Position numbers and translations under genes: made by a program. Below the pieces are notes generated by a model. The model was not told where the DNA came from and searched no databases. It saw nothing but the letters and a program-made list of their open reading frames with translations. A stretch of 64,000 nt of DNA, from NCBI RefSeq assembly GCF_009931435.1, contig NZ_CP043414.1; one strand, 5' to 3'. Numbering within the stretch: the stretch's first letter is position 1; each line of letters opens with the position of its first letter. Source of the stretch: Escherichia coli. Its GTDB lineage: Bacteria > Pseudomonadota > Gammaproteobacteria > Enterobacterales > Enterobacteriaceae. Shown here piece after piece: positions 62,456-63,074 of this stretch.

Positions 62456-63074
62456 ATTTCCTCCACATCCACTGTCTAAAAATCATGATGGTTTATTCAG
62501 GATATTCATTCCTTAAATGTTCCCAGCAAATTAATAGATTAAGCGAATAAATTATCCTTTGCATTCACTTTCATATCAGCATACTCCTGCTGCACAATAA
62601 CTCCACTGCATGTGTCAGAAGGTTAGCATCAAATGATAACCTGGTGAAATAGCCTGGAGACATTTAAAATATCTACATTAAGTTGTTAGAAATACTTAAT
62701 GAAAAACAGAATCCTCATTCATTTAATTTATAATTAAAAAATATTTCTTCTCGCAAAATAAAAAATCACACAATCAATATTTATTCAATAAAATCTGATA
62801 GTTTTATCTTTTTTAAACCCTAAAAAAGCACTCAGTTATCGATAATCCCGATTCGTAAAAACCAGACCATACATTCATTATACCGATAATATTCACGTTA
62901 TAATTTGTTTACAGCTTGAGATTATTCGCTTTTTACCACCGAACCTCTCCCGATAACCAGGATTAATCAGCGCAATTTTGATCTTAACCTGCCGCAAAAC
63001 AACCGCGCTTCATGATACAAATGGATTCTCATAATTTGAACAATACGCAGCGCGTCTATGACAAAGGGCGAGTT

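Follow-up and report, generated by a model that had tools for sequence, protein, structure and literature searches.

The yjjQ-yjjP Spacer and Its Flanking Genes

The window analyzed here, a 64,000-nucleotide stretch of the Escherichia coli contig NZ_CP043414.1 (assembly GCF_009931435.1), contains a 619-bp AT-rich spacer (62456-63074) from which two transcription units diverge. To its left, on the minus strand, lies the yjjQ-bglJ operon, whose first gene, yjjQ (61730..62455, start codon at 62455), encodes a LuxR/FixJ-type transcription factor annotated in K-12 (b4365) as "DNA-binding transcriptional repressor YjjQ." The second gene, bglJ (61095..61772), recovered both as an open reading frame (ORF) and from the RefSeq annotation, overlaps yjjQ by 43 nt, and its product scores 376.7 bits against the NCBIfam BglJ equivalog (cut-off 176). 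To the right, on the plus strand, yjjP (63075..63845; 256 aa) is the first gene of yjjP-yjjB and carries the K-12 annotation of a putative succinate exporter. The sequence-only reading of this stretch had set the gap between divergent yjjQ-bglJ and yjjP at 62456-63074, coordinates that proved exact, and the gene identities that it gave were right.

The right-hand boundary depends on the choice of the yjjP start codon. An in-frame ATG farther upstream (63012) would extend YjjP by 21 residues to 277 aa, and older work is said to have counted a 555-bp spacer from it. Its equivalent was found in only 12 of 54 related enterobacterial loci and was missing from three of the four other Escherichia species examined. 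An ATG occupies the position of 63075 in 49 of the 54 loci, and the Shine-Dalgarno-like purine-rich stretch preceding it was identical in the 12 loci inspected. Judged by this conservation, 63075 is the correct start of yjjP (256 aa), and so the right-hand boundary of the spacer is correct as well.

In K-12 MG1655 the orthologous spacer occupies positions 4602859-4603476, with the same gene arrangement and no annotated feature, and the spacer plus both flanks align to it with a mean column identity of 95%. Two RefSeq E. coli genomes were 100% identical to a 901-base query (window 62300-63200), with the same yjjQ and yjjP flanks and nothing annotated between them, and the spacer is carried by 5424 of 5426 complete E. 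coli genomes. By its flanking genes and homology, the spacer is the ortholog of the K-12 yjjQ-bglJ/yjjP control region.

Composition and Length of the Spacer

The GC content of the spacer is 0.33, compared with 0.502 for the window, and just 0.55% of all 619-bp windows are equal or lower. Its AT content is 67% overall and rises to 78-84% (GC 0.16-0.22) in the AT-richest 100-bp core (62700-62799), a composition that would fit H-NS binding and repression of both units in this strain. The spacer holds 14 A/T tracts of at least 4 bp, a density reached by 3.7% of windows, and no other of the 54 gaps annotated across the corresponding 50 kb of a genome with 99.2% identity is as long, the next two measuring 399 and 392 bp and the median being 90 bp. 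The high-affinity H-NS motif TCGATAAATT has three matches at two or fewer mismatches (62529, 62785, and 62833), as many as are found in 10% of same-size windows, and AA/TT phasing at 11-11.5 bp was weakly significant after testing 13 periods.

Two other regions of the window are likewise low in GC. The first (1-3005) is a chaperone-usher fimbrial cluster adjoining nhaR, comprising the 3' end of a PapD-type chaperone gene, an usher broken up into three or more ORFs (matching PapC_N twice and, in the 549-position Usher profile, positions 29-321), and an ORF of 319 aa without a Pfam match. By BLAST, strain R32_14_1F, which is 97-99% identical otherwise, does not have this cluster at the corresponding place, and the cluster is probably a decaying AT-rich island of the H-NS type. 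The second (8686-9666) is a GC minimum of 0.32, which in a related genome corresponds to the 3' part of an OmpK-family outer-membrane gene plus the spacer before mokC/hokC.

Published Regulation of the Orthologous Region

Stratmann et al. (2008; J Bacteriol 190:926) studied the orthologous spacer of K-12 and are cited for it by later papers (PMC5025477, PMC3950696, PMC2646131); the title of their study includes yjjP. In K-12 both divergent units are held down by H-NS, and LeuO lifts this repression. According to the later papers, yjjQ-bglJ is repressed by H-NS and activated by LeuO (PMC5025477, PMC3950696, PMC2646131, PMC4264507), and BglJ-RcsB activates leuO, which yields a double-positive loop with yjjQ-bglJ (PMC5025477). 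Genomic SELEX showed the yjjP<>yjjQ spacer to be bound by H-NS and by the RpoD holoenzyme (PMC3946193), and MarA ChIP-seq in ETEC H10407 gave a "+++" peak in yjjP<>yjjQ with the predicted marbox gcatcaaatgataac (PMC5684230). In K-12 evolved in the mouse gut, selection repeatedly favored insertions of IS1, IS2, and IS5, which lie at -111, -185, and -256 relative to the yjjP ATG, and in the clone with the IS1 insertion RT-qPCR found aerobic yjjP expression raised 2-fold (PMC5094792). These three insertion sites correspond to positions ~62964, ~62890, and ~62819 of the window.

The abstract of the 2008 study is said to place H-NS binding in the AT-rich center, distal to both promoters, and LeuO sites in the center and over the yjjP promoter. 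The supplements of a Cappable-seq study (PMC4782308) gave no entries for the K-12 coordinates of the spacer. The region and its H-NS/LeuO control are already known and were dissected in 2008, and nothing about the region itself is new. The sequence-only reading had taken the spacer for an H-NS-type silencing platform from composition and gene arrangement alone, a correct deduction that matches the published K-12 experiments (Stratmann et al., 2008, via the citing papers; SELEX, PMC3946193) and would apply here by orthology and composition.

Predicted Promoters and Regulator Sites

Strict sigma-70 consensus matches in the spacer were at chance level (four, with 3.4 expected), and we located candidate promoters from published hexamers and from conservation. 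On the yjjQ side, the hexamer pair CTGATA-17-GATAAT, which has been proposed for yjjQ-bglJ (PMC3946193), was recovered at 62551..62579 on the minus strand both by a consensus scan and by exact search, and is the predicted sigma-70 promoter of yjjQ, with a start near 62544 and a leader of ~90 nt. In the aligned Citrobacter and Salmonella sequences inspected, the corresponding -10 block has, in reverse complement, the sequence GATAA(T/A). Farther into the spacer, in its yjjQ-proximal half, GCATCAAATGATAAC (62626..62640, plus strand) matches exactly the MarA site predicted under the ETEC H10407 peak, and this block was partly conserved across genera in the alignment. With regard to membership in the MarA/SoxS/Rob regulon, the spacer thus carries a putative marbox identical to the ETEC site.

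For yjjP, there are two candidate promoters, one proximal (63013-63021) and one distal (62899-62904). The proximal candidate rests on cross-genus conservation. TTGATCT (62978..62984, plus strand), which contains GATC, is the sole motif outside low-complexity sequence that is conserved in at least 90% of 54 enterobacterial spacers. When k-mers were scanned for conservation between genera, low-complexity AT words prevailed and TTTGATCTT alone was informative; it is present in 47 of the 49 spacers from outside Escherichia, with a null maximum of 39. About 30 bp downstream of TTGATCT lies TGATACAAA (63013..63021, plus strand), an extended -10-like element of the form TGnTAnAA, again conserved in at least 90% of the 54 spacers. 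We consider it a candidate for the proximal yjjP promoter, with a start near 63028 (~47 bp downstream of TTGATCT), but this assignment is tentative because TGATACAAA lacks the usual T at -7. Together, TTGATCT and TGnTAnAA probably represent a regulator site and the core yjjP promoter, respectively. All three of the IS insertions selected in the gut, which maintain or increase yjjP expression, lie upstream of both TTGATCT and TGATACAAA, positions that would fit a core yjjP promoter located in the last ~110 bp of the spacer and silenced from the AT-rich center.

The distal candidate is a -10-like hexamer that follows an Escherichia-wide conserved island, ATTCATT..GATAATATTCA, recognized in the alignments within the otherwise variable center (together 62873..62904, plus strand). 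The hexamer (62899-62904) faces yjjP and is a perfect TATAAT here, GATAGT in K-12, and GATAAT in strain LR-58-1. The island may be a distal yjjP promoter or a protein-binding site. A third element, the hexamer pair ATGAAA-17-TTTAAT (62699..62727, plus strand), is an exact match to the constitutive yjjP promoter predicted in PMC3946193. It was chosen computationally within the SELEX peak (PMC3946193), and it is probably not the main yjjP promoter.

Conservation of the Spacer Across Enterobacteria

A YjjQ scan of species-representative genomes returned 80 loci. In 53 of these, which represent more than 15 genera, yjjP and yjjQ diverge directly from each other (among them Escherichia, Citrobacter, Salmonella diarizonae, Enterobacter, Lelliottia, Leclercia, Phytobacter, Kosakonia, Trabulsiella, Superficieibacter, and Silvania), with spacers of 387-709 bp (median 442) whose GC content is 0.32-0.44 (median 0.36) in loci of GC 0.47-0.56. 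When the gene-proximal parts were aligned, conserved blocks adjoined each gene, and the center was unalignable between genera. The conserved blocks on the yjjQ side comprise the Shine-Dalgarno region, the GATAAT -10, the marbox block, and GTTAGAAATAC (from 62683).

In most comparisons the center has diverged at an approximately neutral rate: K-12 and LR-58-1 differ at 8.2% of central positions vs. 9.6% of flanking fourfold-degenerate sites, and K-12 and Escherichia sp. L003 at 13.0 vs. 14.3%. Nonetheless, the AT-richness of the center is kept in every allele (GC 0.27-0.33). Because it is kept despite this nearly neutral drift in sequence, the pattern, which is the one expected for such a site, supports the idea that the center would be read by its composition rather than by its sequence.

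The junction between yjjP and yjjQ is also a site of gene gain or loss, since more than 800 bp intervenes in 23 of 76 loci. In Klebsiella pneumoniae ATCC 13883, pobA (4-hydroxybenzoate 3-monooxygenase; 650 bits vs. a cut-off of 539) and a gene for an AraC-type regulator lie between the two (locus L070, 653-2735), and the Citrobacter sedlakii locus (L008) has ORFs similar to this insert. Such insertions, together with the nearly neutral evolution of the center, would be in keeping with a spacer left over from the decay of genes that were lost or had been acquired horizontally, with AT-richness and H-NS binding as by-products. Neutral decay would shift GC toward the genomic 50%, yet it stands at 27-33% in every allele, and a long AT-rich spacer with conserved blocks at both ends has been retained in all of the 53 divergent loci. 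Searches with PobA and the regulator (tblastn) gave no match to the spacer even at E ≤ 10, and a pobA/pobR remnant was rejected as its origin on this lack of similarity. We regard a remnant of any kind as highly unlikely.

Two natural rearrangements of the locus were seen among the genomes compared. In the type strain of Escherichia albertii (NBRC 107761; locus L007, 2182-2340), yjjP has an internal deletion equivalent to window 63113-63684 and is probably inactive. In E. coli NZ_OY754834.1 (locus L090, 1674-3186), an IS1 with an adjacent deletion has removed most of the spacer together with the 5' end of yjjQ, and the IS1 now lies ~200 bp upstream of yjjP. No contiguous match over at least 80% of the 901-bp probe was obtained in about 25 of the 5424 genomes, which may hold similar events.

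RNA and Coding Signals

We searched the spacer for signs of a small RNA gene of its own or of a structured leader acting in cis, for instance a riboswitch or an attenuator. AT-rich DNA bound by H-NS contains cryptic promoters, the spacer is long, and the yjjP leader would measure ~165 nt if the 62899-62904 element were used, all of which would leave room for such an RNA. No spacer match was found in Rfam at E ≤ 1, no site resembling an intrinsic terminator on either strand of the spacer, and the putative leaders folded no better than shuffled controls (z = -0.03 and -0.05). In addition, no RNA is annotated in the K-12 spacer, and the center is unalignable even within the genus. If the predicted starts are right, the leaders would measure ~47-165 nt for yjjP and ~90 nt for yjjQ. 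An RNA or leader of this kind thus appears extremely unlikely, and the small RNAs or long 5' untranslated regions that the sequence-only reading had allowed for found no support. Within 59000-64000, the only Rfam matches were three tandem tRNA-Leu genes (59531-59614, 59646-59729, and 59766-59849) and, preceding them, a sub-threshold naRNA4/REP-like palindromic match (59349-59391; 36 bits vs. a gathering score of 59.5).

Each of the six reading frames of the spacer is interrupted by 9-18 stops, and none stays open for more than 38 codons. Mechanical ORFs of 30-45 aa were listed at four places: 62571-62663, 62893-62997, and 62967-63089 on the minus strand and 62379-62516 on the plus strand. Every E. 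coli allele examined has the 30-aa ORF intact. We give scarcely any credence to hidden small protein-coding genes, given that this ORF owes its intactness to DNA that is nearly identical there and is frameshifted in Escherichia sp. L004, that the two others on the minus strand are stopped in several E. coli alleles, that most of 62379-62516 lies opposite the conserved start of yjjQ, and that nothing is annotated in K-12. No small ORF was conserved, three of the four being frameshifted or stopped in some allele or sister species, and the strong AT-richness without a convincing ORF that had been noted at the outset was borne out.

A Probable Shared Control Region Silenced by H-NS

The best explanation for the spacer, to which we assign a probability of roughly 0.88, is that yjjQ-bglJ (leftward) and yjjP-yjjB (rightward) share it as their control region, which is silenced by H-NS and activated by LeuO. 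Under this explanation each unit would have a core promoter near its own gene. H-NS would load on the AT-rich center and spread or bridge to both promoters, keeping them nearly silent under laboratory conditions. LeuO, a LysR-type regulator that is itself repressed by H-NS, would bind within the spacer and remodel the H-NS complex, switching on yjjQ-bglJ, and BglJ with RcsB would in turn activate leuO. MarA may add a further input through its site in the yjjQ-proximal half. Mutations that part a promoter from the AT-rich center, for example IS insertions, would relieve silencing. The effects of H-NS, LeuO, RNA polymerase, MarA, and IS elements have been shown by others in K-12 and ETEC; we infer that they apply in this strain as well, and the exact promoter positions given here are predictions.

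A Rare Haplotype in the Spacer Center

The allele in the window is rare among E. coli. The 901-bp probe matched 18 of 5424 genomes at ≥95% identity, 5400 at 90-95%, and six at lower identity. With a 261-base probe spanning the center (62700-62960), the separation was complete: nine of 5417 E. coli genomes matched at ≥95% identity, the other 5408 at 60-90%, and none in between. Against K-12, identity is 97% over the yjjQ-proximal 259 bp and 96% over the yjjP-proximal 124 bp, but 80% over the central 236 bp. The segment 62715-62950 is also more AT-rich than its counterparts, with a GC content of 0.27 vs. 0.32 for the common alleles.

To delimit the divergent part, we compared four rare-type genomes with five of the common type, taking the nearest other Escherichia species as outgroup. 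There were 25 fixed differences within 62739-62923 and three in the remaining 2.5 kb of bglJ-yjjQ-spacer-yjjP, which defines a rare haplotype block of ~185 bp in the AT-richest, fast-evolving center of the spacer, the presumed H-NS nucleation zone. The block occupies the place where IS insertions were selected in the mouse gut. Relative to LR-58-1, the most similar common-type strain, 40 of 185 block positions differ (21.6%) vs. 12 of 333 flanking fourfold-degenerate sites (3.6%), a 6-fold contrast (Fisher p = 2e-10), and the history of the block therefore differs from that of its flanks. The changes in the rare block (14 transitions and 10 transversions, with a mild A/T bias of 12 vs. 7) look like ordinary long-term divergence rather than a mutational burst. 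The block may be either a short recombinational import or an old polymorphism.

Searches for a donor were negative in the collections covered. The center was only 54-76% identical in the Escherichia species representatives L003-L006 and 49% identical in E. albertii. The plasmid collection yielded nine E. coli records, several of them Mb-sized, all of which carry the common allele (79-82%), and E. fergusonii was absent among the yjjQ loci of the species-representative scan. A second, smaller discordance was found among the common alleles: between K-12 and O55:H7, 9.7% of block positions differ vs. 1.8% of fourfold-degenerate sites (p = 9e-5), and the center is therefore mosaic in E. coli generally. 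In the same part of the window, fhuF (60400-61100) is 88-94% identical to K-12 per 100 bp, compared with 94-100% for yjjQ and yjjP, which suggests another recombinant segment.

It is possible that the rare 185-bp haplotype is not neutral but a functional regulatory allele, either brought in by recombination from a lineage of Escherichia that has not been sampled or maintained as an old polymorphism, although we hold this to be rather unlikely.

Relation to Known Systems and Implications

The closest known system is the K-12 yjjQ-bglJ/yjjP region itself (Stratmann, Madhusudan, and Schnetz, 2008), which has the same locus, genes, predicted yjjQ hexamers, and marbox. The two differ in the central 236 bp, where the allele described here is 80% identical, has a GC content of 0.27 rather than 0.32, and carries TATAAT in place of GATAGT, so that the K-12 experiments concern another allele. 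The regulatory region of the E. coli bgl operon is similarly AT-rich and H-NS-bound. Its silence under laboratory conditions is relieved by LeuO, by BglJ-RcsB, and by IS1 or IS5 insertions that disrupt the silencer (PMC9678765, PMC2646131, PMC3950696). It also shares the regulatory circuit, as BglJ comes from the yjjQ-bglJ operon. In bgl, upstream and downstream (intragenic) H-NS sites loop around a single promoter, whereas the spacer has one central AT-rich tract between divergent promoters. The leuO promoter region, the other half of the double-positive loop with yjjQ-bglJ (PMC5025477), is likewise AT-rich and repressed by H-NS. It is repressed by H-NS/StpA, activated by BglJ-RcsB, and autoregulated by LeuO, but it is a different locus with different activators and no sequence relationship to the spacer.

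With respect to the rare block, Oren et al. in 2014 (PNAS) and Thorpe et al. in 2018 are said to have described E. coli promoter regions replaced by recombination, giving switched or mosaic intergenic regions. The 185-bp block resembles these in its sharp borders and its 6-fold excess of divergence over flanking neutral sites, the signature of an imported or anciently separated regulatory allele. Unlike a non-homologous replacement, it is homologous and alignable.

The spacer provides a textbook-style example of H-NS silencing with LeuO anti-silencing. It is also an example of silencer evolution: more than 15 genera have preserved its length and AT-richness, and the sequence of the center drifts at a neutral rate. 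If the rare haplotype is indeed functional, its higher AT content relative to the common alleles and its consensus TATAAT, which points toward yjjP, could alter H-NS/LeuO control of the succinate exporter YjjPB and of the regulators YjjQ and BglJ. The haplotype is a small and minor new case of natural silencer variation at a gut-selected locus.
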